A stretch of DNA of 64,000 bases from Anaerolineae bacterium (GTDB lineage: Bacteria > Chloroflexota > Anaerolineae > B4-G1 > DUEL01): assembly GCA_025060135.1 (NCBI GenBank), contig JANXCY010000002.1, positions 42,623-106,622 on the forward strand, in the 5' to 3' direction. The notes under the pieces were generated by a model. The model was not told the origin of the DNA and did no database searches. It saw nothing but the letters and a program-made list of their open reading frames with translations. Below, piece after piece: positions 2,234 through 55,737 of the stretch (its first letter is position 1; each line of letters opens with the position of its first letter). The translations under genes and the position numbers were made by a program.

Positions 2234-3541
2234 ATGAAGAGGTTGACGCTGGTAATCGGCGTTCTTATCCTGATAATTGCCTTTCTCTTTGGGTGTGCAA
2301 GACCCGAGAGACCGGCGGCAGATGTCGGGGTGCCACCCAAAATCATCCTGCGTGTGGGCACCGGCGACAGTGGGGAGGGCCTGAATCCCCATCAGGAGAT
2401 CATCGCCCGCTTTGAGAACGAGAATGCGGATATTCTGGTCCAACTGGAGGCGGTGGCTGGACGGGACTACTACACCCGTCTGCTGACCCAGATTGCGGCG
2501 AAGGATGCGCCGGATATCATGCAGATCGGCGACGACGCTGTCCCGATGTTCGCCAGCAAGGGGGCTCTGCTGCCGCTGGAGGACTACATTAAGGGGACTT
2601 ATCCGCTGGATACCCAGATGTATCTGCCGGGCGTTCTGGACCCAGGCCGCTGGGAAGGCAAACTCTGGCTGCTGCCCAAGGATTTCACCCCCCTGGGCGT
2701 CTATTACAACAAGAAAATCTTTGATCAGTTCGGGGTTGCCTATCCTCAGGACGGCTGGACCTGGACCGATTTGCTTCAGACCGCCCAGGCTCTGACCCGG
2801 GACGTGGACGGCGATGGCAAGACGGACATTTGGGGCATTCAACTGACGGCCAACTGGACCACCGGCTTTGAGTACTGGGTCGCTGCAGCGGGTGGTCGTC
2901 TCATCAGTGAGGACGGTAAGCGGTTCGTTGGCTATATGGATTCGCCGGAGACCATTGCGGCCGTTCAGTTCTTCGCCGACCTGTACAACAAGTACAAAGT
3001 GGCTCCGCCCCCTGCCGATTTCAATCTCTGGGCAGGTGGCAACACCGAGTTTGAGAACGGCAAGGCGGCCATGCGCATCTTTGGGCGCTGGCCTCAGGCC
3101 AGATACAGGGAAAACCCCAACCTGGACCTGGGCTTAGTGGGCGTGCCTGCCGGAAAGGTACGGGCCAACATTCTCTTCTGGAGCGGCTTCGGGATTTTTA
3201 GCGGAAGCAAGCATCCCGAAGCGGCCTGGCGCTTCCTGCGCTTCTATGCTGGCAAAGAAGGCTCCGAGGTGTGGAAAGACTGGGCCATCCCACCGGTCGC
3301 TTCCGTTGCGGAGGCCGCCGGCCTGACCACGGACTCCCTGGAAGGCGTCTGGATCAGAGAACTGAACTTCTTGGCGCCCCGGGCCTACGTGTTTACCCCC
3401 TACTGGAACGAGACGGCGGACCCGGCGCTGCGCAAAGCCCTGGAGACGGTTTTGACTGATCCTCAGGCGGACGTGGCCGCTGTTATGAAAAGGGCTGCAC
3501 AGGAAGCGCAAGCGGCTTTGGATGAGAAACTCGGTCAGTAA
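2234..3541 (+). CDS. sugar ABC transporter substrate-binding lipoprotein (family 1)
   Basis: Lipoprotein signal MKRLTLVIGVLILIIAFLFGC; family-1 SBP-like sequence; followed by two permease genes. Confidence 0.8.
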   Translation: MKRLTLVIGVLILIIAFLFGCARPERPAADVGVPPKIILRVGTGDSGEGLNPHQEIIARFENENADILVQLEAVAGRDYYTRLLTQIAAKDAPDIMQIGDDAVPMFASKGALLPLEDYIKGTYPLDTQMYLPGVLDPGRWEGKLWLLPKDFTPLGVYYNKKIFDQFGVAYPQDGWTWTDLLQTAQALTRDVDGDGKTDIWGIQLTANWTTGFEYWVAAAGGRLISEDGKRFVGYMDSPETIAAVQFFADLYNKYKVAPPPADFNLWAGGNTEFENGKAAMRIFGRWPQARYRENPNLDLGLVGVPAGKVRANILFWSGFGIFSGSKHPEAAWRFLRFYAGKEGSEVWKDWAIPPVASVAEAAGLTTDSLEGVWIRELNFLAPRAYVFTPYWNETADPALRKALETVLTDPQADVAAVMKRAAQEAQAALDEKLGQ

Positions 3542-3561
3542 CCGGAATCTCTTCTAAGAAC

Positions 3562-3607
3562 GAACGCAGGCTGCCCGACTGACGCAAAGCGGGGGCGGCC
3601 TGCGTTC
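3562..3607 (+). terminator. hairpin (15-bp stem, one mismatch) downstream of the binding-protein gene; possible intra-operon attenuator/terminator
   Basis: gaacgcaggctgccc ... gggcggcctgcgttc seen directly. No clear U-tract. Confidence 0.35.
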
Positions 3608-3638
3608 TAAACTTTCAGCAGGACTTTCGGGCTTCTCT

Positions 3639-4565
3639 ATGGCGGTTCAGAGTTACCCTCGCTCCCAACAGCGGACAGGCCGCCTGGAAAGGCGGGAAGC
3701 GCTTACGTTTTATCTATGCATTTCCCCCTGGTTGCTGGGCCTTCTTCTGTTTGTTTTGGGGCCGATGGTGGCCTCGCTGATCATCAGTTTCACCCAATGG
3801 GACCTGCTCAGTCCCGCCCGCTTCGTCGGTCTGCAGAACTATCAGAAAATGTTCAACGGCGATCCCCTTATCTGGCAGTCGCTGAGAGTGACGGTCGTTT
3901 ATACGAGCGTGTACGTACCGATGGAGATGGTAGGAGGACTGATTTTGGCCCTCTTGATGAATCAGAGGCTGCGTCTGTTCGGCCTGTTCCGCACGGTCTG
4001 CTACCTGCCTTCGGTCTTGCCTGGGGTCGCCTTCGTGATCGTGTGGATGTGGATTCTCCATCCGGATGTGGGGCTGCTCAACACCCTGCTCTCCTGGGTG
4101 GGGATTCAGGGTCCCCGCTGGCTGGCTGATCCTCGCTGGGCGCTCCCTGCCCTGCTGATGATGAGCCTCTGGGGGCTCGGCCGAAGTATGGTTATCTATC
4201 TGGCTGGCCTCCAGAGCATCCCTCAGTACCTCTACGAGGCTGCGGCCATTGATGGAGCCAGTGGCTGGCAATCCTTCTGGAAAATCACCTTGCCAATGTT
4301 GTCGCCTACCGTCTTCTTCAACCTGGTGCTCAGCGTTATCAGCACCTTTCAGACCTTTACTAGTGCTTTTATCGCCACCGACGGAGGGCCTTTGGACGCC
4401 ACACTGTTCTATGTGCTTTACCTCTTCCGTCAGGCGTTTCAATACTTCAACGTCGGCTATGCCTCAGCTATGGCCTGGGTGCTGTTCGGGATTATCTTTG
4501 CTCTGACGTTACTGATTGTGCGCTCCTCCGATCGCTGGGTCTACTACGAGGGCGAAAGACGATGA
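3639..4565 (+). CDS. sugar ABC transporter permease (MalF/UgpA-like)
   Basis: Six-TM permease with an EAAxxDGA-type motif (YEAAAIDGASGWQSFWKITLP). Confidence 0.85.
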   Translation: MAVQSYPRSQQRTGRLERREALTFYLCISPWLLGLLLFVLGPMVASLIISFTQWDLLSPARFVGLQNYQKMFNGDPLIWQSLRVTVVYTSVYVPMEMVGGLILALLMNQRLRLFGLFRTVCYLPSVLPGVAFVIVWMWILHPDVGLLNTLLSWVGIQGPRWLADPRWALPALLMMSLWGLGRSMVIYLAGLQSIPQYLYEAAAIDGASGWQSFWKITLPMLSPTVFFNLVLSVISTFQTFTSAFIATDGGPLDATLFYVLYLFRQAFQYFNVGYASAMAWVLFGIIFALTLLIVRSSDRWVYYEGERR

Positions 4566-5446
4566 AAAGTGGGGACATTCCGTCCATAAAGCCGATGTCT
4601 TACCGAAGGCTCTCTCACTACGCCTGCAAGGGGCTACGTATCGCCCTGGCCTACTTGCTGGCGGGAACAGTAACGTTCCTGTTCCTTTTGCCCCTGCTGT
4701 GGATGATTTCCTCTTCCCTCAAGCCCGATTACCAGGTTCTGGAGTTTCCGCCTCGCTGGTTTCCCACTCCCGTTCAGTGGTCCAACTATCCGAAGGCTCT
4801 CACCTACGTGCCCTTTGGTCGCTACATCCTCAACACCCTCTTCATATCGATGATGGTCATCGTTGGTCATATCCTATCCTGCGTTATCGTCGCTTATGGC
4901 TTTGCCCGGCTGCGTGCCCCGGGCAAAGACCTGCTCTTCTTGGTTTTGCTGGCCACTATGATGCTGCCCTACCCTGTGACAATGATTCCCCTCTACATCG
5001 GCTTTAAGACCGTTGGCTGGGTCAACTCCTTCTGGCCGCTGATCGTCCCCGCTTTCTTCGGTAGCCCCTTTTACATCTTCCTGCTACGTCAGTTCTTCCT
5101 GACGATTCCACCGGACCTGGAGGATGCCGCTCGTATTGACGGCGCCAACTTATTGCAGATTCTCTGGCACGTTCTGCTGCCTAATCTGAAACCAGCTATT
5201 GCCACGGTGGTCGTCTTTTCCTTTCAGGCATCCTGGAACGACTTTTTGCCCCCGCTCATCTATCTCCACGACCAGTCCAAGTATGTTGTATCCCTGGGGC
5301 TCAGTTTCTTTCGCAGTAGTTACGATATTCGCTGGAATTACCTGATGGCTGCCTCGCTGGTGACGATTTTACCGGTAGTGATTGTCTTCTTCCTGACCCA
5401 GCGGCTCGTTTTAAAGAGCATCGCTCTGACCGGAGTAAAGGCCTGA
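4562..5446 (+). CDS. sugar ABC transporter permease (MalG/UgpE-like)
   Basis: Permease with EAA-loop (DLEDAARIDGANLLQILWHVLLP). 4-nt overlap with the upstream permease gene. Confidence 0.85.
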   Translation: MKSGDIPSIKPMSYRRLSHYACKGLRIALAYLLAGTVTFLFLLPLLWMISSSLKPDYQVLEFPPRWFPTPVQWSNYPKALTYVPFGRYILNTLFISMMVIVGHILSCVIVAYGFARLRAPGKDLLFLVLLATMMLPYPVTMIPLYIGFKTVGWVNSFWPLIVPAFFGSPFYIFLLRQFFLTIPPDLEDAARIDGANLLQILWHVLLPNLKPAIATVVVFSFQASWNDFLPPLIYLHDQSKYVVSLGLSFFRSSYDIRWNYLMAASLVTILPVVIVFFLTQRLVLKSIALTGVKA

Positions 5447-5454
5447 TCGTTATT

Positions 5455-5482
5455 TTGACAATTCTCTGCAACAGCATATAAT
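5455..5482 (+). promoter_or_regulatory. consensus sigma70-type promoter (TTGACA-16-TATAAT) upstream of the Fur-family gene
   Basis: ttgaca attctctgcaacagca tataat read directly. AGGAGG-like RBS (taaggaggtagc) before the ATG at 5519. Confidence 0.6.
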
Positions 5483-5518
5483 TGCATTAACCCCCCTCCG
5501 CTTTTGTAAGGAGGTAGC

Positions 5519-32541: not shown

Positions 32542-33900
32542 ATGAAGAAAATGACCCCCCTGTACTCCATGCTGCTGGTGCTGATTTTGCTCCTCAGCGC
32601 CTGCGGCCCGGCCCGGACGCCGACTGCTCCTGCGCCCGCTGTCACAATCGTGGTGGTAACTGCCACACCGGCTCCTGAACCCAAGAAACTGGAAATCTTC
32701 CACTGGTGGACCGCGGGCGGTGAGCGGGAAGCGGCCGACGCCATGTTCAAGGCCTTCAAGGACAAGATGCCGGACGTGGAGATCGTGGAGAACCCGGTTG
32801 CGGGCGGCGGTGGCGTGAGCCACCGGGTCGTCCTCCAGGCTCGGCTCTCCGCTGGCCTCCCCCCGGACACCTGGCAGACCCTGGGCGGCGCCGAACTGAA
32901 GTCCTACGTGGACGGCGGCTACCTGGAACCGCTGGATGACCTGTGGGCGGAGTTGAACTACGCCGCGGTCATCCCGGGCCCGCTGGCTAAAGCCGTAACC
33001 ATCAATGGGCACCCCTACGTTGTCCCCCTGAACATGCACATCCAGAACATCCTCTACTACAACAAAGCCCTGTTTGATGAACTGGGCCTGCAACCGCCGG
33101 CCACTTACGACGAGTTGATCGCGGTCGCCAAGGCGATCAAGGAAGCCCGGCCCGAGATGAGCCCGCTGGCCCTGGGTACCAAAGAGAAATGGGAAGCGGC
33201 CTTCGTCTTTGACAGCATCCTCCTGGAGGTGGGAGGCCCCGAACACTACGTCAAAGTCTACAAAGGCGAAGTGGACGTGAAGAATGACCCCGCCTATAAG
33301 GAGGCGCTGCAAAAACTGGAGGCGCTGATTCCCTACATCTATCCCTACCATGCTGGCCTGACCTGGGATGAGTCCTGCGGCCTGGTCGTCGCTGGCGATG
33401 CGGCGATGGTGCTGATGGGGACCTGGGCCATCGGCTACTTCCAAAGCCGGGGCTGGACGCCAGGTAAGGAGTTCAGCGCGGTAACCTTCCCCCAGAAACC
33501 CGAGCGTATCCTCCTCTTCCACCCGGATACCTACGGCCTGGCGAAGGGCGCGCCCCATCCGAAGACCACGATAGAATGGCTGAAGGTCGTGGCCTCGCCG
33601 GAACTCCAGATTCCCACCGACGTTACCCAGGGCGGTCTGTTTGCCCGGATCGATATTGACCCGGCCAACTTCCCCGATCCCATCCGGCGGGAACTCCAGA
33701 CCTACGTCCGGAACAACCCGGACAAACTGATCCTGGACCAGCACGGGAGCATTGCGCCCTTCAGTTTCACCCAGGCCTACTGGGATGTGATTGCCGCGTT
33801 CATCGCCCAGCCCAATGTGGACGGGACCCTCTCCTCGGTGGCGGACCTGCTGACCACCTACAACGTGAAAGCAGAGGCGGCCTGGTATCAGTGGCCGTAG
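32542..33900 (+). CDS. sugar ABC transporter substrate-binding lipoprotein (family 1)
   Basis: Signal MKKMTPLYSMLLVLILLLSAC and a family-1 SBP-like sequence. Confidence 0.8.
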   Translation: MKKMTPLYSMLLVLILLLSACGPARTPTAPAPAVTIVVVTATPAPEPKKLEIFHWWTAGGEREAADAMFKAFKDKMPDVEIVENPVAGGGGVSHRVVLQARLSAGLPPDTWQTLGGAELKSYVDGGYLEPLDDLWAELNYAAVIPGPLAKAVTINGHPYVVPLNMHIQNILYYNKALFDELGLQPPATYDELIAVAKAIKEARPEMSPLALGTKEKWEAAFVFDSILLEVGGPEHYVKVYKGEVDVKNDPAYKEALQKLEALIPYIYPYHAGLTWDESCGLVVAGDAAMVLMGTWAIGYFQSRGWTPGKEFSAVTFPQKPERILLFHPDTYGLAKGAPHPKTTIEWLKVVASPELQIPTDVTQGGLFARIDIDPANFPDPIRRELQTYVRNNPDKLILDQHGSIAPFSFTQAYWDVIAAFIAQPNVDGTLSSVADLLTTYNVKAEAAWYQWP

Positions 33901-33990
33901 TCTGCCGACCGTCGGGAGCCCCAACCCGATGATGTGGCGTTGGACTGCCAGTGCAGGCCGCTGACATGAAGCGGGGGTATTTGCGGAGAA

Positions 33991-34950
33991 ATGACCGCAA
34001 ATACCCCCTTTCCTTCATTAGTTAATCGGAACATCCCCATGAACCGAAAGCCGCGACGCACTTTCCGGCAACGCCTCTTCACAGTGCTGGAATCCTTGCC
34101 CTTCCTGGCCCCTCTGCTGATTTTCCTGGCGATCCTCTACGGTATGCTCGCCTGGACCCTTTATGTCTCCATGGCCAACTGGGTCGGGACGGCGCCCAAT
34201 TATGAATTCGTCGGGCTGAAGTGGTACCAGATGATGTTCCGCCTGGACCGCTTCCGGGTGGATATGACCAACAATGTCAAGTGGCTCTCCCTGGGAGTAC
34301 TGCCCACCGTGGCTCTGGCACTGTTTCTGGCCTATATGCTGGAAATCGGCTCGGTGAAGCGAATTGAGGGCTACGTACGAACGCTCATTCTCTACCCGGT
34401 TGCCATGTCCTTTGTCGTCACCGGGACCATCTGGTCGTGGATGTACCAGCCGGATAAAGGGGTGCTCAACACCATCCTGCGCGCGATCGGGCTGACGGAA
34501 CTGATAGGACGGTATACTACGAATCCCGCTACGGCTACCTACTGGCTGATTCTGATCTTTATCTGGCAGTATCTGGGATTCGCCGTGATTATTCTGCAAT
34601 CTTCCTTCCGAACGACCGAACTACAGGAGATGGTGGAAGCCGCCATTGTGGATGGGGCTTCCAAATTGCGTATCCTTTTTTCGGTCATCGTCCCCAATAT
34701 CCGGGGCGGTATTCTCATCCTGATCTCGCTCCTCCTGATTTCGGCGCTGAAAGTGTTTGACATCGTCTACGTAGTTACCTTTGGCGGCCCCGGCTACTCT
34801 ACCGACGTGCTGGCTCTCTTTATGTTCATCGCCACCTTCCAGCAGCATCTGGTTGCACTGGGGGCCGGGCTGGGGATGATCATCTTCTTGATGGCTCTGG
34901 TGATCGTCATTCCCTACACCATCTACGCTTTCCGGAAGTGGTTTGAATGA
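33991..34950 (+). CDS. sugar ABC transporter permease
   Basis: MalF-type TM permease with EAA loop (VEAAIVDGASKLRILFSVIVPN). Possible start at 34036. Confidence 0.85.
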   Translation: MTANTPFPSLVNRNIPMNRKPRRTFRQRLFTVLESLPFLAPLLIFLAILYGMLAWTLYVSMANWVGTAPNYEFVGLKWYQMMFRLDRFRVDMTNNVKWLSLGVLPTVALALFLAYMLEIGSVKRIEGYVRTLILYPVAMSFVVTGTIWSWMYQPDKGVLNTILRAIGLTELIGRYTTNPATATYWLILIFIWQYLGFAVIILQSSFRTTELQEMVEAAIVDGASKLRILFSVIVPNIRGGILILISLLLISALKVFDIVYVVTFGGPGYSTDVLALFMFIATFQQHLVALGAGLGMIIFLMALVIVIPYTIYAFRKWFE

Positions 34951-35771
34951 GGATCCGAGGCCTTTCCACCCAACTCATTGTCCTGTTGGTTACCCTGGTG
35001 CTGACCGGGGTATATGTTCTGCCCATTTACGTGATGGTGATGACCTCCCTGAAGACACCGGTGGAGATCAGCCAACGGGCCTACCTGATCCCGACCCGGA
35101 ATCTGCAATTTCAGAACTACGCGGAGGCCTTCCGGCTGATTTATCCCTCCCTGATCAACTCCTCCATCATTTCTTTCGCTGTTACCCTTCTGGCCGTGTT
35201 CTTCGGGGGACTGGGGGGATACTATCTGAGCCGCTCCCGTTCCCCATTTGTCCGGGTCTTGTTCATCCTGGTGGGCGTGGCTCTTTACCTGCCCTATCAG
35301 GTCATCCTGATCCCGTTGGTCCAGTTGATGGCGAAGACCCGTCTGGCGTTGACCTACGCGGGCCTGATTGTGAGTTATTTGATCCTGAACGTCCCGCTGG
35401 CGTCCGTGTTAATGGGGACTTTCTTTCTCTCCATCCCGCGAGAATTGGAGGAGGCGGCCCAGGTGGACGGAGCCAACCGGCTGCAACTCTTTTTCCGGGT
35501 GGTCTCCCCGATCTCCCTGCCGGCCTATGCTTCCACGGCCATCATTGTCTTCACACAGGTCTGGAACGAATTCCTGCTGGCCTTGACGCTTTCCACGCCA
35601 GCCACGACAACCATCCAGGTCAAATTGGCCGAGGTAAAAGGGAGTTTCGTGGCCCTTTACAACATCCAGATGGCCTCTGCGCTGATTGGAGTCCTGATTC
35701 CCCTGTCCTTCTTCCTGTTCCTCGGACGCTATTTCATCCGGGGCGTTCTGGCGGGGGCCCTGAAGGGATAA
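34947..35771 (+). CDS. sugar ABC transporter permease
   Basis: MalG-type permease (LEEAAQVDGANRLQLFFRVVSP). Confidence 0.85.
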   Translation: MRIRGLSTQLIVLLVTLVLTGVYVLPIYVMVMTSLKTPVEISQRAYLIPTRNLQFQNYAEAFRLIYPSLINSSIISFAVTLLAVFFGGLGGYYLSRSRSPFVRVLFILVGVALYLPYQVILIPLVQLMAKTRLALTYAGLIVSYLILNVPLASVLMGTFFLSIPRELEEAAQVDGANRLQLFFRVVSPISLPAYASTAIIVFTQVWNEFLLALTLSTPATTTIQVKLAEVKGSFVALYNIQMASALIGVLIPLSFFLFLGRYFIRGVLAGALKG

Positions 35772-35823
35772 CCGCCGGTGATATGGGGAAAGCGAAGGGG
35801 GTAGTGGCGGGATCAATCCTGCG

Positions 35824-37119
35824 CTACCACCTGCTCGGGTCTATGTGTCTGCCAATCGGGCTCTCCGCCACCGCCTCCAGAAATGCCTCCGGAGGCACCA
35901 CGCCGGTCGCCCGCAGGATGGTCAGCAGGGCATAGAGGGCGGCGTTACGCGCGCCGGCCCGTCCGCGAAAATCGGTTATCCGGACCTCCGCGCCTGTCTC
36001 CGGCACCGGCAGAGACGCGTCCAGCCAGAGGATGCCGCCCCGCATTTGGTCAATCCGCTTCCGTTGATTCTCCAGCCCATCCGCCGAGGTTACCACCATC
36101 ACATCGGGTTCGGAGACGCCGTGGTAGAAAATAGGGCTCCGGGAAAGGACGATTTCGGCCGTGGAGAACCCCACGCCTACGGTAACCGGATACATGCTCT
36201 TCTTGGTAGCATAAAGGCCCGCAGCGATGGCCGCTTGAGCCAGCAGTTCCGCCGCCTGCTGCACGCCTTCTCCGGCTGAGCCGGCCAGGATCAGGGTCAT
36301 CCGGCCTGCCAGGGGAGACGAATGCTTCGGGAGGACCGGAGGCATATCCAGCAAAGACGCCGTCTCCCGGCGGGCGGGGCGAAAGGCGGGACGGGTGGGG
36401 CCCGTCCAGACCCCCGGTTCATAGCCGGTCTCCCGGGCCAGTTCTCTCAACCGGGGGCCCGGGTTCGCCCCTCCCAACCCGGTCTGGGCATCCGGCCTCA
36501 GCCCCAGGTCCGGGTTCATCTTCACGCCGTAACTGACGCAGATTTCCAGTACCTCCACCAGCGCGAAGCCCTCCACCTCCAGCGCCTGGCGCAGGACGTC
36601 GGAAAAGTCGCCCAGGCCGACGACGCGGGCCGCGAAGGGCGCGCCCGCATCCAGCACCAGCCGGGGCAGGTCGTGGTGGGGGAGAGGGTAGCCCTGGGGG
36701 GTAAGAACGGTCCGGAAGCCGGTGGGGGTCAGGCCGCTGGGTTGCCCGCCCGTCATCCCGTAGAGCATGTTGTTGTGGACGACGACGGTCAGGTCCACAT
36801 TCATCCGGGCCGCCTCCAGGATGTGCTGGAGGCCAATGGTGGCGCCCCCGTCGCCGATGTAGACGATGACCTTCTTCTCCGGCGGGAGGCCCATGGCGAT
36901 GCCCGCCGCCAGCGCGACGGACCGTCCGTGGAGGCCGTGGACGGTGTGGGTGGCGAAGTTCCCGTCCACAATGCCATGACAGCCGATGTCGGTGACCAGC
37001 ACCACGTCCAGTGGGGAGGCGCCCAGTGCCTCCAGCGCCTTCACGGTGTTGCGAACGATGAGGTGGTGCCCACAGCCCTTACAGTACGGGAGTTCGGGTT
37101 TGATCAGGAAGCGGCTCAT
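35824..37119 (-). CDS. korB: 2-oxoacid:ferredoxin oxidoreductase beta subunit (TPP-binding) fused to gamma subunit
   Basis: N-terminal CKGCGHH and GDGG TPP motif (beta). The C-terminal about 150 aa match the gamma-subunit family (ILAGSAGEGVQ..., VVTSADGLEN). Confidence 0.8.
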   Translation of the reverse strand: MSRFLIKPELPYCKGCGHHLIVRNTVKALEALGASPLDVVLVTDIGCHGIVDGNFATHTVHGLHGRSVALAAGIAMGLPPEKKVIVYIGDGGATIGLQHILEAARMNVDLTVVVHNNMLYGMTGGQPSGLTPTGFRTVLTPQGYPLPHHDLPRLVLDAGAPFAARVVGLGDFSDVLRQALEVEGFALVEVLEICVSYGVKMNPDLGLRPDAQTGLGGANPGPRLRELARETGYEPGVWTGPTRPAFRPARRETASLLDMPPVLPKHSSPLAGRMTLILAGSAGEGVQQAAELLAQAAIAAGLYATKKSMYPVTVGVGFSTAEIVLSRSPIFYHGVSEPDVMVVTSADGLENQRKRIDQMRGGILWLDASLPVPETGAEVRITDFRGRAGARNAALYALLTILRATGVVPPEAFLEAVAESPIGRHIDPSRW

Positions 37120-48796: not shown

Positions 48797-49933
48797 TCAG
48801 GGAGATACCGGCAGCCGGAAGGTGAAACGGCTCCCCCGCCCCAGTTCCGATTCCACGGTGATGCACCCCCCATGCCCCTCCACAATCTGCTTGACCAGTG
48901 GGAGCCCCAGTCCCGTCCCGCGCGGGGCGATTTCTCTGGCCTGAGGGGTGCGGTAGAACTCCTCAAAGACGCGCTCCCGGTCCTGGGGAGCGATGCCGAT
49001 CCCCGTATCCTCCACAGCACCAATGGCCCATCCGTCTCTTTCTTCCAGAATGACCTGCACCTGGCCTCCCGCCGGGGTGTACTTCACCGCGTTGGAGATC
49101 AGGTTGCTCCATACCTGGGCCATCTGGTCGGGGTCGGCCTGCACCACCGGACGGGCCCGCACGTCCACTGCCCAGGTAATCCCTCTGGCCTCTGCTTCCT
49201 TCCGGAAGAGGGGGGCGACCTTTTCCAGGATGTCCGCCAGAGAGACCGGTTCCCGCTTTTCCAGGCCTTTCTCGCTTTTGGCCGCTGCCAGTTTCAGGAG
49301 GTCGTCCACCAGGTCCAGGAGTTCCTGGACCCGCTGGGCGGCCCGTTCCAGCACCTCCTGTTGCTCCTCCGGGGGAATGTACCCTTTGAGGATAGCCAGC
49401 AGGAAACTCTGGAGGGCGTTCAGCGGCGCGCGCAGTTCGTGGGCGACCGTCCACATAAAGGTTGTCTTGAAGCGGTCCAGCCGCTCCAGTTCCGCTTTGG
49501 CCCGGGCCAGTTCCTGGGCCTCCTCTTCTATCTTCTGCAGACGTCGGGCTTCCAGGGTGAGCCGCCGCCGTTCCAGTCCCTGGGCCACCGTCATCCGTAG
49601 GATATCGGCGGTGAAGGGCTTAGAGAGAAAGTCGTAGGCGCCGGACCGAATGGCCTGGACGGCCAGTTCCACGGTGGCGTAGCCGGTGATAACCACACAG
49701 ACCACGTCGGGGTCCTTCTCCAGGATGGGCCTCAGAAGGTCTACCCCGCGCATGTCGGGCAGGACGACGTCCACCAGAACCAGGTCAAAGCGCCCCTCTT
49801 GGACACGGTGGAGCCCCTCCTGTCCGGTGGAAGCCGTCTCCACGATATATCCTTCCGGCTCCAGGGCCCGCCGACAACCGGCGCGAATACCCTCCTCGTC
49901 GTCAATCACCAGGATGCGCGGTGGTTCGTTCAT
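48797..49933 (-). CDS. hybrid receiver-histidine kinase (REC-HisKA-HATPase_c)
   Basis: N-terminal receiver (ILVIDDEEGIR...DLVLVD), H-box VAHELRAPL, G-boxes (GTGLGLPLV). Start likely at MNEPPRIL (49933) rather than ORF start 49996. Confidence 0.8.
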   Translation of the reverse strand: MNEPPRILVIDDEEGIRAGCRRALEPEGYIVETASTGQEGLHRVQEGRFDLVLVDVVLPDMRGVDLLRPILEKDPDVVCVVITGYATVELAVQAIRSGAYDFLSKPFTADILRMTVAQGLERRRLTLEARRLQKIEEEAQELARAKAELERLDRFKTTFMWTVAHELRAPLNALQSFLLAILKGYIPPEEQQEVLERAAQRVQELLDLVDDLLKLAAAKSEKGLEKREPVSLADILEKVAPLFRKEAEARGITWAVDVRARPVVQADPDQMAQVWSNLISNAVKYTPAGGQVQVILEERDGWAIGAVEDTGIGIAPQDRERVFEEFYRTPQAREIAPRGTGLGLPLVKQIVEGHGGCITVESELGRGSRFTFRLPVSP

Positions 49934-50053
49934 GGCGAGCATCTGGCACCGTTGGGTCGCACAGGCCGCCTGGCCTGTCCGATGCAGGGCCCCCATCCCC
50001 GGGCGACCAACGCGCGGCCCGGTGCCCGAAAGGCCGGTACGTAACGTCTGTCC

Positions 50054-52033
50054 TTACCCGATGATCGCTCCCTGAGGCCCAGGAAGGGGACGCCCGGTCT
50101 CTCCGACCCACCGCACGGGTAGCGTGAGGGTGAAGGTTGTCCCCTTCCCGACCTGACTCTGGACGGTGATCTGGCCCCGATGCATTTTGACGATGCCGTA
50201 AACAATGGAGAGGCCCAGGCCGGTGCCCTTCCCCGGTGGCTTGGTGGTGAAGAAGGGAGTGAAGAGTTTATCCATATGCTCCTCCGGAATGCCACAGCCG
50301 GTATCGGTGATAGAGATTTCTACCTGTCCGTTCAGGCAGCGGGTGGCAATCGTGATGGTCCCCGGCCCCTCTATGGCCTCCGCCGCGTTGTTCAGGAGGT
50401 TGACGAAGACCTGCTGTAACTGTGCGGGGTCGGCCTGGATGATACGTACCCGGGGATCGTAGCAACGGATAATCTCCACCCCGGCGAACGTGGGCTGATG
50501 CCGGACACTCTCCACGGACTGATCCAGCAGAGTATGTAGGTCTGTCTCCTGGGCCAGGACCTCCTGTTGACGGGCGAAGTTCAGGAGGTCGGCGACAATC
50601 TTTTTGGCTCGGTTGGCCTCTTTCAGAATCATCTCCAGGTCGCTCCGATGGGGATCATCGGGCGGAAGTTCCCGATGCAGGGCATCGGCGAAGAGCATGA
50701 TGGTGCCCAGGGGGTTATTGAGTTCGTGGGCTACGCCTGCGGCCAGTTGGCCCATAGAGGCCAGTTTCTCTTTGTGGAGCAACTCCTGCTGGGTGCGGCA
50801 AAGGGTTTCGGCCATGCTGTTGAAGGAGCGGCCCAGTGTGGCCAGTTCTCCGTCGCCATAGGTGAGCACCCGGACGGCCATATCGCCCGCTGCCAGTCGG
50901 CGGTGTGCCTCGACCAGTTCGGAGACGGGACGGGTGATCACATAACTAATCGGGACCGCAATGATGCTTGCCAGCAGGATACAGATAATGGCGATCAGCG
51001 CGACCCGCTGGTTGAAGGATTGGACCAGCCCCCGAAATGCGGCCTCGCGCGCCCCGACATACAGGATACCCACCACATTGCCCTGGTGGTCCCATAGCGG
51101 CTCATAGCGGGTGATGTACCATTCCTTGACCACGAAAGCGCGGCCGACGTACTCCCTCTTCTCTTCCAGGACGACCTGACGAACGGCCTGAGAGAGGCGG
51201 GTGCCGATGGCCCGGCGTCCTGCCTCATCCGTTACATTGGTGGAGACTCGCAGGTCGCCCAGGAAGATGGTCACGGTATCGATTCCAGCCACTTCTTTGA
51301 TCCGGTCCACCAGCGTGTAGTCGTTATTGAACATATAGGCGGAAAGAACGGCGCCCATCAGCTGCCCCGAGGGGTCCCGGAGAGGGGATACGCCCACCAG
51401 TGCCAGCCCCGCCGTCCCTTCCCGGGGATCAAAGGGTTCTGGCGCAGCCAGTGGGGTCTCTAGAAGCGGAATAAAGGCCTGGTTGTCCAGCCCCACCTGG
51501 GCCAGAAACTCTTTGGGAATGACCTCAGTGGCGGCTTGGGGCCTGCCCGTTTCCAGCACGGTACGGACGATAGGTAGATCGCCAAGGTGGCCCCGGGTGA
51601 GGGTTGAGGAGAGGCTTCCCTCCGGCCAGAGGACTTTGCCGACTACCAGGTTGCCCTGCGCGTCCAGGACGGCGATGAGGTGAGTACCGCCCAGGGCCAG
51701 AACGATGATTTTGTTGGTGATCTGGCGGTCAATAATCTGGATGGCCTGCGGGTCCCCTCTGGCAGCGGCGGCGAAATTCTCTACCACCCACTGGTCTAAC
51801 ACCAGCCGGTGGCTGATGGCCGCGACTTCGTCCAGTTTCAACTGGTAGAAGGTCTCGGCCAGTTTCATATCCCGTGCCACTCGCTCTGCCTCAGCGGAGG
51901 CCAGGTATTCATGGATGACGTGGGAGACGACCAGCGCGTTCAGCCCCACCGTCAGCGCGGCAATCAGCGCAAAGGAGACCGTCAGGACGATCCGCAGTTG
52001 TCCGCCCAGAAGCCCGAGAAAAAATGCGCGCAT
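50054..52033 (-). CDS. membrane sensor histidine kinase with large extracytoplasmic sensing domain and HAMP
   Basis: Two TM segments bracketing about 280-aa periplasmic region, HAMP, H-box (VAHELNNPL), N/G boxes. Confidence 0.8.
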
Positions 52034-53890
52034 GGTGCTCCTACAGACTATCTTCTTCCGCGAAACGTGGCGATACTGACAACGGAGAATATATCCCTCT
52101 CCTCGCGGAAGGCGCGAAAAAGGCTTTCTGTCATTATGCCAGAAGGATAGTTCGTTAATATGAATATGCTTGGGTGTTCTCCGGTCTTTCCCTGGCTCAT
52201 GGTACCGTACCTTAAAGTTAAAGGCCGATTTGCCGCCTTTTTCAACATAAACCGAGTGTCATTAGATGTTGTGTGGATCAGGTCTGGGCCAGTCCAGGTT
52301 GTCGTCACTGAAAACCTCCTAGTTACGAAGATAGATCAGCAGGTACCTATGGATGATCTGCAGGCTCTCGTCTGAGGGGGGACAGGGCGGGGGATTGGGG
52401 ACAACAATCACGATTTCCTTCAGAGATAAGTGCCGCTGTCCTTGGAGCGCCTCGTACACGAGAAGCCCTGAAGGGATCAAACGTCCTCCGCTGCGGAAAT
52501 CCACCGCTTCTACAATCAAAACCGCCCCCGGAGGAAGCCAATTCCAACTCCGTTGCGCAAGATGGACCACAAGGCCGCGATATCCGACAAATCTGGATTC
52601 GGTCATTGGGGGAGGAGGACAGCGGATGAAGAGAGTATCTGCAGGGGGTTCATCCAATGGCCATTCTTCTTTCTCGCCATACCGTACTTCCAGAAAATGG
52701 CCTCCGCTGCAAAACCGTTGAATCAGGTTGCGTCGCATCTCGGCATCCAGTTGGTCTTCAGGGAAAATCCAGACCGTAGTGGTTTCCAGATTTTCCTTTT
52801 TCGCTTCAGGGACTGCTTCCCGATGTAGCCAGCAGGACGGGCTTTCTTCCCAGAGAGGCAATTGTTCCCGAATCTCTCCAATCAAAGGTTTTTCAAAGAT
52901 CGGCAAATATTCGTGCGCCAACAATAGGAAGTTGTGCTGGATGCTCCGTGTGTACCAGAAGCCGGTTGTCCTGCAGTTATGCTGCCGCTTGATCACCAGT
53001 TCTTTCAGCACAAGACCGGTATCCAGAAAGACCCGGATGGTTTGGAACCCGATGGGAATCACGTTTTTTGATCTCCGGGCGTCTCCCACGAGGATGGCAC
53101 ATTTGCCACCAGGTTTCAAGACCCTCAGGCTTTCCTGCGCGACTTTTCGCATTTCCCGCAGAAAATCTGGCACTGAGAGCGCAGAGAGGTCGCCGGGTAT
53201 TCGGGTACTGTACCGGATAATTCCCGCGTAGGGCGGGTGAGCACAGATCAGGTCCACCGAATTATCTGGTATGTCGGAGAGGTCCCGAGCATCTCCAATC
53301 CTGACTTCGGGATCGTATATTACCGGTTCCGCCTCTGCTGTCAACGAGCGAGGTGGCGAAAATCTGAGATTTTCCAAGGTTATCCCGACTGCTCCGGGAT
53401 TGATGTCTCTGGCAATACAGCGGCGGCCTAGCAGTTTGGCCTCAACAGCCGTAGTCCCCCCACCCACAAAATAATCCAGCACCAGGTCGCCCGGCCTGGA
53501 GTACTTCAGAATGACATTGCGAGGGATATAAGGAGACCAATTTCCCCGATAGCGTCCATTATGGGTGGCCCAGTCGCCGCGCTGTTTAAAACTCCACACG
53601 GTAGTGGTCTCTTCCTGGAACGAGCGGGGTTCCCAGCGTTTGATCGTTTTGGAGCGCTGGAGCACGCTGATATTCGCTCCATAGGCCTCGGTAATGATTT
53701 GTTGAAGGGTGTTGAAGGAGATACCGTACCGCGCGCCAATTTCCGGGTCGGAAATCCCGCGCTCTTTGTCCGTCAGCACCGCCCGCTTGAATGCTGCCTC
53801 TCCGTGCATCTGGAGAATGTGCGGACGCAACGGCCCTTCTATCCGCAACTCGCAAATCGGGCACCGAAAAACCATCAGCTCTCCCATCCC
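52034..53890. other. low-GC islet (roughly 50-55% GC against about 65% background) carrying the methyltransferase gene
   Basis: Visibly A/T-richer codon third positions and AT-rich flank 52034-52318 compared with neighbours. Judged by eye, not computed. Confidence 0.5.
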
Positions 53891-53983
53891 ATTACCCCCA
53901 AGAGGGTACGGCTCATTCCGATCTCCGCACCTCCGCATCCTCTGCGGTGAAAAGCGGAACCGCCCCCCGTTTTCTACGTCCAA
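52319..53983 (-). CDS. SAM-dependent N6-adenine/N4-cytosine-type methyltransferase (motif I FVGGGTT then motif IV HPPY) with N-terminal zinc-ribbon + HTH and large C-terminal domain
   Basis: DYFVGGGTTAVEAKLLGRRCIARDINP and CAHPPYAGII. N-terminal FRCPICEL and a sigma-70 region-4-like HTH (GISDPEIGARYGISFNTLQQII). Start probably MGELMVF at 53887. Confidence 0.6.
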   Translation of the reverse strand: MDVENGGRFRFSPQRMRRCGDRNEPYPLGGNGMGELMVFRCPICELRIEGPLRPHILQMHGEAAFKRAVLTDKERGISDPEIGARYGISFNTLQQIITEAYGANISVLQRSKTIKRWEPRSFQEETTTVWSFKQRGDWATHNGRYRGNWSPYIPRNVILKYSRPGDLVLDYFVGGGTTAVEAKLLGRRCIARDINPGAVGITLENLRFSPPRSLTAEAEPVIYDPEVRIGDARDLSDIPDNSVDLICAHPPYAGIIRYSTRIPGDLSALSVPDFLREMRKVAQESLRVLKPGGKCAILVGDARRSKNVIPIGFQTIRVFLDTGLVLKELVIKRQHNCRTTGFWYTRSIQHNFLLLAHEYLPIFEKPLIGEIREQLPLWEESPSCWLHREAVPEAKKENLETTTVWIFPEDQLDAEMRRNLIQRFCSGGHFLEVRYGEKEEWPLDEPPADTLFIRCPPPPMTESRFVGYRGLVVHLAQRSWNWLPPGAVLIVEAVDFRSGGRLIPSGLLVYEALQGQRHLSLKEIVIVVPNPPPCPPSDESLQIIHRYLLIYLRN

Positions 53984-53986
53984 TCT

Positions 53987-55126
53987 TTACCCCAGGGGCA
54001 AGGTGAAGCGAAAGGTGCTCCCCCGACCGACCTCCGATTCTACCTCAATAGTCCCCCCGTACATTTCCACCACCTGCCGGACGATGGGCAAGCCCAGGCC
54101 GGTACCCGTCTCCTGTAACCGCTTCCCCTCTTCGGTCCGGTAGAACTCCTCAAAGATGCGGGGGATTTCATCGGCCGGAATGCCAATGCCGGTATCAGAG
54201 ACCGCGCCAACAGCCAGACCGCGCTCCCGGTCCACCGCCAGCGAAACGGTTACCCGGCCGCCGGAGGGGGTGTAACGGATGGCGTTATCTATCAGATGGA
54301 TCAGGAGGGCCCGGATGTGGTCCGGGTTGGCCCGCACCCGGGGGGAATCCTGCACGTCCACCTCCAGGGCCACCCCCTGCCGCTCCGCGCGCGGCCTCAG
54401 GGCCGCCAGCACGCCCTCCAGTATTTCCTCCAGGGAGATAACCTCCACCCGGCTGAGGCCAATGCCCTCCTTCAGGTGGGCCAGGAGCAGGAGGTCGTCC
54501 AGCGTAGCGAGCAGTTCGCCCGCCCGCGCCTCCGCCCGGGCCAGCACCTCTGGCTGTTCCTCCGGAGGGATGTAGCCTTTCCGGATCCACTGGAGGGTGT
54601 TCTGAAGGACCGCCACGGGCGCCCGAAGGATGTGGACCAGGGTGAGCATAAAGCGGCCTTCCACCGCTTCCAGTTTTTGCAGTTCCGCTTTGGCCCGGGC
54701 CAGTTCACGGGCCTCTTCCTCCAGGGCCCGAAGCCGTTCCGCCTCCCGGCGCAGGGCCCGCCGCTCCAGTTCCCGGTGGACCACCTGAAGGAGCTGGTCG
54801 GCGGAGAAAGGCTTGGCGATAAAGTCGTGGGCACCTTCGCGAATGGCCTGGACGGCCAGTTCCACGGTGGCGTAGCCAGTAATGATGATACAGATCAGGT
54901 CAGGGTCCATCTGGCGGGCCTGGCGGAGGACTTCGATACCACTCATACCGGGCATCATAATGTCCAGGAGGAGGACATCATAGCGGGCTTCCCGGAGTTG
55001 GCGCAGACCCATGGGGCCGTTCTCCGCCACGTCCACGTCAAACCCTTGGGGGACCAGCACCCGTCGGCAGCCTTCCCGGATGCCGACCTCGTCATCCACC
55101 ACCAGAATGCGACAGGGGATACTCAT
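53987..55126 (-). CDS. hybrid receiver-histidine kinase (REC-HisKA-HATPase_c), paralog of 48797-49933
   Basis: Same architecture and collinear similarity to the other hybrid (ILVVDDEVGIREGCRRVL..., ITGYATVELAVQAIR..., EEFYRT...GTGLGLPIV). Start moved to the internal ATG at 55126 so as not to overlap mobA. Confidence 0.8.
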   Translation of the reverse strand: MSIPCRILVVDDEVGIREGCRRVLVPQGFDVDVAENGPMGLRQLREARYDVLLLDIMMPGMSGIEVLRQARQMDPDLICIIITGYATVELAVQAIREGAHDFIAKPFSADQLLQVVHRELERRALRREAERLRALEEEARELARAKAELQKLEAVEGRFMLTLVHILRAPVAVLQNTLQWIRKGYIPPEEQPEVLARAEARAGELLATLDDLLLLAHLKEGIGLSRVEVISLEEILEGVLAALRPRAERQGVALEVDVQDSPRVRANPDHIRALLIHLIDNAIRYTPSGGRVTVSLAVDRERGLAVGAVSDTGIGIPADEIPRIFEEFYRTEEGKRLQETGTGLGLPIVRQVVEMYGGTIEVESEVGRGSTFRFTLPLG

Positions 55127-55737
55127 CGGGCCCGCTCCACTTCCGCCAGCAGGGACTCCCAATCCTGAGGCGTATTCACGTTCCGAAAGGAGCGGAGGCC
55201 CGGGTCCAAGGCCTCTGCCTCCTCCCGCGCGATGTACCGGACCCGGACGTAGGGGAAAAACGAGATAATGCGCTGCTGGCCGGCCCGAATGACCGCTTCC
55301 ATCGCCGGGAGGCAGGTCCGCCGGTAGGCGGCGTGGAGCGTTTCCACCTGCTCGCCTCGCCGGAGTGCGACCACGTCGTATCCCTCTGCCCAGACGACGA
55401 AGGCCCGCAGGAGGGCCGGATTCAGGAAGGGCATGTCGCAGCCAACGGCCAGGATCAGGTCGTGCTGGGCGGCGCGGAGCCCGGCATGCAGACCGCCCAG
55501 CACCCCCACGCCAGGAAAGACGTCAGGCACCACCCGGGTGCCCAGGCCCGCGTATCGGGAGACGTCGCTGGCGACGATCAGGACCTCCTGGCAGAGTTCT
55601 GCCATCCGGTCCAGAACGTGGAGAATCAGCGGACGGCCAGCCAGTTCCAGGAACGCTTTGTCTTTACCCATCCGACGACTGGCCCCACCCGCCAGAACCA
55701 CCCCCGTTACCGGCCAGCGGAACCCCGCCGTATGCAT
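55123..55737 (-). CDS. mobA: molybdenum cofactor guanylyltransferase
   Basis: GVVLAGGASRRMG...DKAFL and LILAVGCDMPFL MobA motifs. Confidence 0.8.
   Translation of the reverse strand: MHTAGFRWPVTGVVLAGGASRRMGKDKAFLELAGRPLILHVLDRMAELCQEVLIVASDVSRYAGLGTRVVPDVFPGVGVLGGLHAGLRAAQHDLILAVGCDMPFLNPALLRAFVVWAEGYDVVALRRGEQVETLHAAYRRTCLPAMEAVIRAGQQRIISFFPYVRVRYIAREEAEALDPGLRSFRNVNTPQDWESLLAEVERAR

Follow-up and report, generated by a model that had tools for sequence, protein, structure and literature searches.

A predicted DNA methyltransferase gene beside the wreck of its partner gene: a probable half-decayed restriction-modification module in an Anaerolineae genome

Genes and features of the islet

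The DNA analysed here is a 64,000-nucleotide stretch of an Anaerolineae bacterium genome (assembly GCA_025060135.1, contig JANXCY010000002.1, positions 42,623 to 106,622 of the forward strand), hereafter called the window. Between two kinase genes the window contains a low-GC islet, which carries an intact gene for a predicted DNA amino-methyltransferase (MTase) and, immediately 3' of it, an 86-aa open reading frame (ORF). As judged from alignments, this ORF is a pseudogene of the conserved partner of the MTase, a protein family of ~160 aa named P160. The islet is quite probably a horizontally acquired two-gene module of the Type II restriction-modification (R-M) kind that is half decayed, with the modification gene (M) kept and the restriction gene (R) lost. 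The features of the islet, in window coordinates, are as follows.

52034..53986, no strand: low-GC islet, between the stop codon of a REC-type histidine kinase gene (REC-HK, 53987) and the ribosome-binding site (RBS) and start of a Cache-type histidine kinase gene (Cache-HK, 52033)
52319..53875, minus: DNA amino-MTase gene, intact, 518 aa (PF01555, PADLOC MTase_II, identity to P0001)
53804..53872, minus: zinc-finger-like module C-x2-C...H-x4-H (CPICEL...HILQMH), from alignment and AlphaFold2 (AF2) model
53681..53800, minus: helix-turn-helix (HTH) module, helices ~aa 30-42, 47-54 and 58-69 (AF2; Pfam on homologues; conserved block)
52883..53650, minus: catalytic MTase core, motif order X-I-...-IV-...-VIII, unpermuted, gamma/Trm11-like
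53450..53470, minus: motif I, FVGGGTT, S-adenosylmethionine (SAM) binding, aa 140-146, read directly
53228..53239, minus: motif IV, HPPY, catalytic tetrapeptide with His for D/N/S, aa 217-220, read directly
52322..52792, minus: C-terminal degenerate MTase-like domain, an internal duplicate (hhalign; AF2)
52315..52320, minus: AGGAGG, RBS of the partner gene, overlapping the MTase stop TAG (52319-52321)
52048..52308, minus: pseudogene of the ~160-aa partner (P160 family), 86-aa ORF (protein and DNA alignments to the homologous loci L001, L002 and L003)

The mechanically called ORF of the MTase (52319..53983, minus) starts at TTG and encodes 554 aa; an earlier note, made from the letters of this DNA, had the islet abutting the upstream stop codon. 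That ORF exists, but the true start is most likely ATG 53875 (MVFRCPICEL), or alternatively ATG 53887. With either start the MTase gene does not truly abut the upstream stop, and a spacer of ~110 nt is left with the former. The 518-aa protein is 100% identical to P0001, 'DNA methyltransferase [Anaerolineae bacterium]'.

The partner gene is a pseudogene

The P160 gene is the second gene of the module and is translationally coupled to the MTase gene. In the window, the AGGAGG RBS is located 6 nt 5' of the GTG start of the 86-aa ORF. All of the first three homologous contexts (3/3) have an ORF of 159-163 aa without Pfam match, 10-13 nt 3' of the MTase gene, and the gap is 0-15 nt in most homologous loci, a tight coupling. 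Compared to the proteins of L001-L003, the 86-aa ORF retains ~19 N-terminal and ~35 C-terminal residues in frame, with an unmatched middle. The DNA alignment to L001, which lies in the metagenome-assembled genome (MAG) GCA_014874475, revealed a 1-bp deletion between 52252/52251 and a 230-bp deletion with its junction at 52157/52156. Together, 231 bp (77 codons) are missing; the 3' end is therefore read in frame again, and the 86-aa ORF survives. The conserved polar residues, H48, H50, D54, K58, E110, E114, Q126 and E127, all belong to the frameshifted or deleted part. The earlier note had placed the 86-aa ORF correctly, but had seen no restriction endonuclease partner; the alignments identify the ORF as what deletions and a frameshift have left of the conserved partner gene. 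Where a Type II R-M system has an adjacent intact restriction gene, the window has this doubly deleted pseudogene.

Partner genes have also decayed beside intact MTase genes elsewhere. L013 contains P160 fragments (L013:1456-1737), L025:3293-3527 is an internally deleted and L006:7531-7964 a frameshifted PDDEXK_11 gene, and at L072:5496-5759 only the C-terminus of a DpnII-family gene is left; the MTase is intact at all four loci. P0274, 86 aa in length and from a different lineage, is a further P160 with an internal deletion. Its missing part begins just past HIHLI and extends to TELIMIQEK, near the endpoints of the window's deletion. Slot genes have decayed repeatedly and independently next to intact MTases, in three partner families and not in P160 alone, as expected if the restriction gene is lost first.

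The methyltransferase is followed by exchangeable partner genes

We scanned for the MTase family using one genome per species. It is present in at least 584 species-level genomes, and the best 80 are all MAGs. The carriers include Chloroflexota, Acidobacteriota, Nitrospirota, WOR-3, Aminicenantes, Caldatribacteriota, Thermotogota, the Candidate Phyla Radiation, Asgard archaea, Archaeoglobus and Thermoplasmata. At 55-80% identity, the gene pair is also found in unrelated phyla and in archaea.

The downstream slot, defined as the gene immediately 3' of the MTase on the same strand, was surveyed in 86 loci. P160 or its weaker relatives occupy ~33 of the slots, a ~180-aa family (C2) 8, PDDEXK_11 nucleases 9-10 and DpnII-family restriction endonucleases 7 (Pfam E 6e-35). 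Ten slots hold a family of ~400-450 aa and four a family of ~360 aa with a weak NucS-like C-terminus; a NucS-like PD-ExK protein, a DUF6996/6997 protein and a D12-class MTase were found at single loci. At most P160 loci, the module consists of the MTase and P160 alone, flanked by unrelated host genes. In the neighbour-joining tree of 77 MTases, the partner classes are interleaved: L071 (P160) is sister to L080 (DpnII), and L011 (DpnII) is located beside the clade of the window. A conserved M gene combined with often exchanged, non-homologous slot genes, several of which are bona fide nucleases, is a Type II R-M signature. The spread over at least 584 species, the interleaved tree and the empty sites described below all reflect a mobile module that is patchily distributed and whose R gene is swapped. 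Taken together, the decayed partner and the R-M context of the slot favour a remnant R-M or defence module, one of the three options offered by the earlier note.

The ~400-450-aa partners (L007:2422-3720, L016, L023, L047, L056, L057, L060, L065 and L077; also L040 and L066), whose hosts include Asgard and Archaeoglobus MAGs, gave no Pfam or NCBIfam match; this family is a candidate for a further uncharacterised restriction enzyme. The slot protein at L026:3854-4615 contains DUF6996 (E 1e-23) and DUF6997 (E 2.5e-48), which suggests that the two domains belong to a restriction endonuclease. Five or six loci (L053, L063, L067, L081, L034 and L046) have three genes, with the MTase, the ~180-aa C2 and P160 in tandem, and hint at a heterodimeric effector in some lineages.

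P160 as a candidate restriction effector

The P160 family is a small one, with 264 clusters at 90% identity. By exhaustive profile search, its superfamily, made up of the P160, P190 and C2 subgroups, has ~317 representatives at 50% identity, and none of the 317 carries any annotation. C2 is tied to P160 via P190, an intermediate group of ~190 aa (hhalign, 99% and 97% probability). H48, H/D50, D54, K58, E110, E114, Q126, E127 and N130 are conserved across all three subgroups, a set more in keeping with a metal-dependent hydrolase than with a protein that only binds DNA. The predicted fold, a confident model, is composed of β3 and six helices, and the fold comparison found no known structural relative. 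No PD-(D/E)XK, HNH, GIY-YIG, PLD or half-pipe fold or motif is recognisable in P160. PF04556 (DpnII family) matched neither the 86-aa remnant nor intact P160; it fills the slot only in other lineages. The only borderline Foldseek match of the P160 model is BFVD A0A2L1IVY4, a 198-aa protein of the Streptomyces phage BillNye that is itself uncharacterised (E 0.048, probability 0.99, TM 0.56 over 163 columns, 13% identity).

P160 shares its slot with nucleases, forms two-gene modules among host genes and decays in the way that nuclease genes do; for these reasons, we consider it reasonably likely to be the restriction effector. Alternatively, the module may be R-M-like or defensive, with P160 as a DNA-binding, methylation-sensing or regulatory subunit and the killing done by another, variable component. 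The lack of a recognisable nuclease fold and the C2 plus P160 tandems are in line with such a role, and two fusion proteins weigh against P160 as the nuclease. On the short contig L168, a fusion of a Dam-class MTase and P160 (Dam-class::P160) is located next to a PD-(D/E)XK-like (PDDEXK_11) gene; with this weak neighbour, P160 need not be the sole nuclease there. The PDDEXK_11 match is sub-threshold, so we rejected it as firm proof of a separate nuclease and kept it as a caveat. In P0251 (L169:4408-5574), the P160 domain is fused to TIR_2 (E 1.6e-17), which fits a sensor role too. This 7.3-kb contig has no MTase, and in the HxH motif, otherwise conserved, H48 is substituted; the P160 domain may have been co-opted by another defence system. 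The L168 neighbour, the TIR fusion and the tandems leave some room for a sensor or accessory function. However, most P160 loci offer no third component besides the MTase and P160, the same slot holds genuine restriction nucleases elsewhere, on MTase lineages interleaved with those of P160, and P160 decays like those nucleases while the MTase stays intact. Moreover, the invariant residues are acidic or His, not basic as for a pure DNA binder. An accessory role of P160 is therefore unlikely.

Class and domain organization of the methyltransferase

The sequence evidence points to a DNA amino-MTase for the islet protein (METHYLTRANSFERASE). PF01555 matches it with an E value of 8.5e-21 (75 bits, cut-off 26.7), PADLOC MTase_II (PDLC03376) matches it end to end (E 7e-85), and it also has matches to 'DNA methyltransferase' families of PHROG. 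Its sequence matches in the PDB are DNA MTases: TTHA0409 (2zie), M.MboIIA, CcrM, N4-cytosine (N4C) MTases, M.RsrI and M.PvuII. The earlier note had read motif I FVGGGTT followed by an atypical motif IV, HPPY; both are present, 77 aa apart, and the PF01555 and PADLOC matches support a DNA amino-MTase with this motif order. In motif I, F140, G144, T145 and T146 are invariant, and V141, G142 and G143 are nearly invariant. C215, A216, H217, P218, P219 and Y220 (CAHPPY) do not vary among 42 homologues with 55-82% identity, and much of the core is likewise invariant. Thus, the SAM-dependent DNA MTase of a Type II R-M system is there with its motifs I and IV, although the His in motif IV is atypical.

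β-Class amino-MTases have the linear order IV-VIII, target-recognition domain (TRD), X, I-III. Different from these enzymes, the islet MTase has motif I (aa 140-146) ahead of motif IV (aa 217-220), and both the halves of the Pfam profile and the halves of 2zie match it in swapped order. In γ-class (M.TaqI-like) enzymes, the order is X-I-II-III-IV-...-VIII, followed by a C-terminal TRD. The motif order of the islet MTase fits the γ-class, but its C-terminal domain is an MTase-fold duplicate rather than a TaqI-type TRD, and no γ-class DNA MTase is found among its PDB sequence matches.

The N-terminal module, taken for a CPICEL zinc ribbon before, has a C2H2-like pattern instead. In the AF2 model it forms a β-hairpin (residues 6-8 and 15-17) and one helix (residues 21-28), all with pLDDT >90; because of this ββα-finger arrangement, the metal site looks C2H2-like rather than a ribbon. 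In alignment A4, both N-terminal Cys and both His are either conserved or almost invariant. The HTH predicted ahead of the core is present and folds into three helices in the AF2 model. PF13518 is found on the MTase homologues P0082 and P0085 (precomputed Pfam), and the block SDPEIGARYGISFxTLQQIITEAYG is conserved among the homologues.

The earlier note left the C-terminal ~250 aa unassigned, as a possible TRD. This part is ~190 aa in length and contains a ~160-aa degenerate duplicate of the MTase core plus a linker. Comparison of the N-terminal core profile with the C-terminal domain profile gave a probability of 97.9% and an E value of 3.3e-13 over 158 aligned columns, which identifies the tail as a degenerate copy of the MTase fold. 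The copy is without the motif I-III segment, and its motif IV is eroded to RCPPP. In the AF2 model (pTM 0.83), the C-terminal domain is of α/β nature with pLDDT ~90.

Both halves of the core have their best sequence relatives among the β-class MTases (TTHA0409, M.MboIIA, M.RsrI, CcrM and M.PvuII). β-Class enzymes act as homo- or heterodimers with division of labour, some of them pairing with an eroded subunit (PMC7544214). The fused active and eroded domains of the islet MTase would imitate such a pair in a single chain; apart from this pseudo-dimeric single polypeptide, it differs from the β-class homodimers by the swapped order of the halves and by the His-first motif IV. MettL3-MettL14 likewise joins an active and an eroded subunit, and needs N-terminal zinc fingers for substrate binding (PMC7544214). 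Like METTL3-METTL14 and ciliate MTA1-MTA9, the islet MTase combines an active amino-MTase with an eroded paralogue and has a zinc finger N-terminal to the active domain (PMC7544214). However, those complexes are eukaryotic, consist of two polypeptides, are of β class and act on RNA or ApT DNA; the likeness is architectural only, and the duplication appears to be independent.

Several results weigh against the reading of the islet as an R-M module with a DNA MTase. Among solved structures, those nearest in fold to the MTase core are tRNA N2-methylguanosine (m2G) MTases. No characterised precedent for His in motif IV was found in the literature, where the one relevant paper in which HPPY co-occurs with 'methyltransferase' has it as a typo for R.HpyAXII. 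The 120-200 nt 5' of the MTase start contain no recurring inverted repeats or 8-mers in 31 loci; without a shared operator, autoregulation through the HTH is unsupported.

An RNA enzyme, that is, a Trm11/TrmN-like tRNA or rRNA m2G MTase next to an unrelated small protein and without any R-M module, is nevertheless very improbable. Nothing besides the fold rank and weak, sub-threshold matches speaks for it. The TIGR01177 score is 31.8 (cut-off 316.55) and that of PF01170 18.9 (cut-off 22.3), placing the protein outside the Trm11/TrmN family. Different from the Trm11/TrmN/Trm14 tRNA m2G MTases (PF01170 relatives), it has no THUMP domain, and the zinc finger and HTH take its place. Its best sequence families are DNA MTases, and its gene is consistently followed by restriction-type nucleases, including those of the DpnII family. 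It is also missing from most close relatives, and this mobile, patchy distribution is unlike that of a housekeeping RNA MTase.

Insertion between two kinase genes and later inheritance

The islet is flanked by two host genes.

53987..55162, minus: upstream flank, REC-HisKA-HATPase hybrid kinase (REC-HK), by Pfam; 88% identical to the L001 orthologue, synonymous divergence (dS) 0.56
50054..52033, minus: downstream flank, Cache-HAMP-HisKA-HATPase sensor kinase (Cache-HK), 659 aa, by Pfam; anchor for the empty-site search

The REC-HisKA-HATPase genes at 53987-55162 (minus) and 48797-49996 (minus) are paralogues with 53% identity. The paralogy noted before therefore holds, but the islet is only loosely 'wedged' between the two, because the Cache-HK gene also intervenes; its immediate neighbours are the upstream REC-HK and Cache-HK. 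The phospho-acceptor box is H-I-L-R-A-P in the REC-HK beside the islet and the canonical H-E-L-R-A-P in the paralogue, and the HisKA score of the former is weaker (1.1e-7 vs 2.6e-11).

The A/T-richness claimed for the islet proved real in the sliding-window calculation, which gave anything but a uniform GC content. In 400-bp windows, the GC content is 0.51-0.55 across 52000-53600, compared to 0.60-0.70 in the flanks. With 0.537, the islet is the minimum among the 1950-bp windows of the 64 kb (mean 0.625, SD 0.028), a deviation of ~3 SD. The GC content at third codon positions (GC3) is 0.60 for the MTase gene and 0.74-0.78 for the flanking genes. The only other patches below 0.57, at ~3300-5500 and ~33500-36000 (0.54-0.57), encode ABC-transporter permeases (BPD_transp_1), with genes for a solute-binding protein and a Fur-family regulator alongside. 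Their low GC is due to the hydrophobic composition of membrane proteins; they are not islands.

Empty sites were sought by a metagenome scan with the adjacent Cache-HK as anchor. L001 is syntenic with the window and has REC-HK, MTase, a 163-aa ORF (intact P160, L001:7520-8011), Cache-HK and REC-HK in a row. At least 14 loci with a Cache-HK of 81-88% identity, a divergence equal to that of L001, have an empty site. Many further loci, with a kinase of 60-72% identity, also keep the order REC-HK, Cache-HK, REC-HK without the MTase. No remnant of the MTase or P160 was found at the empty sites, either in the 14 or more close loci or in those of 60-72% identity, and the spacer is 18-270 nt in length. 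At the occupied site, the junctions lie directly 3' of the REC-HK stop codon and directly 5' of the Cache-HK RBS; no target-site duplication and no mobility gene (integrase or transposase) was seen there. Because relatives as close as L001 have an empty site, the islet is an insertion: it entered the spacer between the two kinase genes in the common ancestor of the window genome and GCA_014874475. The horizontal origin proposed earlier is thereby supported. The suggested comparison of relatives showed the islet to be common to the window and L001 and missing from most others, rather than a housekeeping MTase conserved at this position.

In some islet-free relatives the empty-site spacer is ~260 nt in length (L088:5740-6000). 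A GC-rich palindrome in it is flanked by direct repeats of CACGAAGGACA to one side and by their inverted copies, TTCGTGCCCTTCGTG, to the other; the spacer may be a small hairpin or an element resembling a miniature inverted-repeat transposable element (MITE).

Between the window and L001, the dS of the MTase gene is 0.65, compared to 0.56-0.69 for the three flanking kinase genes, and the ratio of nonsynonymous to synonymous divergence (dN/dS) is 0.153, compared to 0.10-0.115 for the flanks. A dS like that of the flanks, an unameliorated GC3 and a low dN/dS indicate that the module entered before the lineages split and that the MTase is under purifying selection. The MTase is intact and still under this selection.

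That the islet is native, with a low GC due to amino-acid or codon composition and an MTase that is an ancestral, solitary Dam/CcrM-like regulator lost elsewhere, is scarcely credible: the dN/dS (0.15) and flank-like dS of the MTase, the bare junctions and the trivial explanation of the other low-GC patches would agree with it, but it fails to account for the GC3 gap, for the gene pair shared with unrelated phyla and archaea and for the attached decayed partner, and it needs many independent precise losses, as L001 alone has the site occupied among all sampled relatives, even though these include distant ones that share the kinase synteny.

Recognition site

With moderate confidence, we propose GATC as the most likely site of the MTase, the methylated base being N6 adenine or possibly N4 cytosine. 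DpnII-family enzymes cut GATC, and they fill the slot on MTase lineages that are interleaved with the P160 ones. Furthermore, P0345 joins a P160-superfamily domain to a Dam-class MTase; the nearest solved structure to this MTase is DpnM (2dpm, E 3.9e-59, full length), followed by Escherichia coli Dam. In L019, the D12-class MTase located 3' of this family's MTase recalls the two-methylase DpnII operon. All three observations argue for GATC.

The islet MTase can thus be compared to the DpnII/MboI-type GATC systems, which contain DpnM (Dam-class), DpnA (PF01555) and R.DpnII. In both cases a PF01555-related amino-MTase stands beside a restriction gene, and in this family the resemblance extends to the DpnII-family partner in at least seven related loci, the second MTase of L019 and the P160::DpnM-like fusion P0345. 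Different from those systems, the partner in the window's lineage is P160, and the MTase has the order I then IV, HPPY where those enzymes have DPPY, a finger and an HTH at the N-terminus and, fused to the core, a second domain that is degenerate; for the islet MTase, GATC would be a specificity inferred from context.

Oligonucleotide counts do not favour this assignment. GATC is depleted in loci of all partner classes. Its observed/expected ratio (O/E) is ~0.55-0.64 in the window (0.64), in L001 and in close islet-free relatives (0.55). As the latter are equally depleted, the k-mer evidence on GATC is neutral, and we rejected k-mer avoidance as a read-out of specificity. Avoidance of AGCT, TCGA and CTAG is much stronger; it is a property of the clade and does not track P160 loci. 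In the window, the palindrome O/E (maximal-order Markov) is 0.09 for AGCT, 0.16 for TCGA, 0.21 for CTAG and 0.14 for CCGCGG. In close relatives (L001, L088-L101) it is 0.02 for TCGA, 0.04 for CTAG and 0.32 for AGCT, and at 60-70% identity it is ~0.9-1.0. This suggests that the clade was long exposed to AluI-, TaqI- and SacII-type systems unrelated to the islet.

A working model and its implications

In the model that we favour, the MTase would methylate a fixed short DNA site and work as a built-in pseudo-dimer: the active domain would flip and methylate the base, whereas the eroded domain together with the finger and HTH would hold the DNA, mirroring the division of labour in β-class dimers. 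P160 would have been the cognate restriction effector, probably a metal-dependent endonuclease of a new fold acting on unmethylated sites. After the loss of P160, the MTase would have been left as a solitary ('orphan') enzyme, still marking the chromosome. Like other orphan MTases derived from R-M decay, it is an intact, selected M beside an inactivated R, a situation that recurs in other lineages of this family. The difference is that the inactivated gene belongs to a family without any characterised member, and its identity as R comes from gene context.

For this genome, the outcome is modest and ordinary: the compositional anomaly is explained, and a solitary DNA methylase is identified that probably still marks the chromosome. 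Such a methylase has to be taken into account when any methylome is interpreted and when relatives are transformed. Of wider value is an uncharacterised two-gene module that is spread across hundreds of uncultured bacterial and archaeal species. The family is unusual in its single-chain 'active plus eroded' MTase, its finger and HTH, a His in the catalytic tetrapeptide for which we found no precedent, and a commonest partner without known fold. It is possible, though we put it forward only tentatively, that the P160 superfamily represents restriction enzymes of a new structural class, probably with GATC specificity, paired with an undescribed pseudo-dimeric, finger/HTH-bearing HPPY DNA MTase. 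Only a handful of catalytic folds are known for Type II restriction enzymes; therefore, a further one, if true, would be of interest to enzymologists and defence researchers. With its partners exchanged again and again on a single methylase scaffold, the family also offers a natural experiment in R-M evolution.

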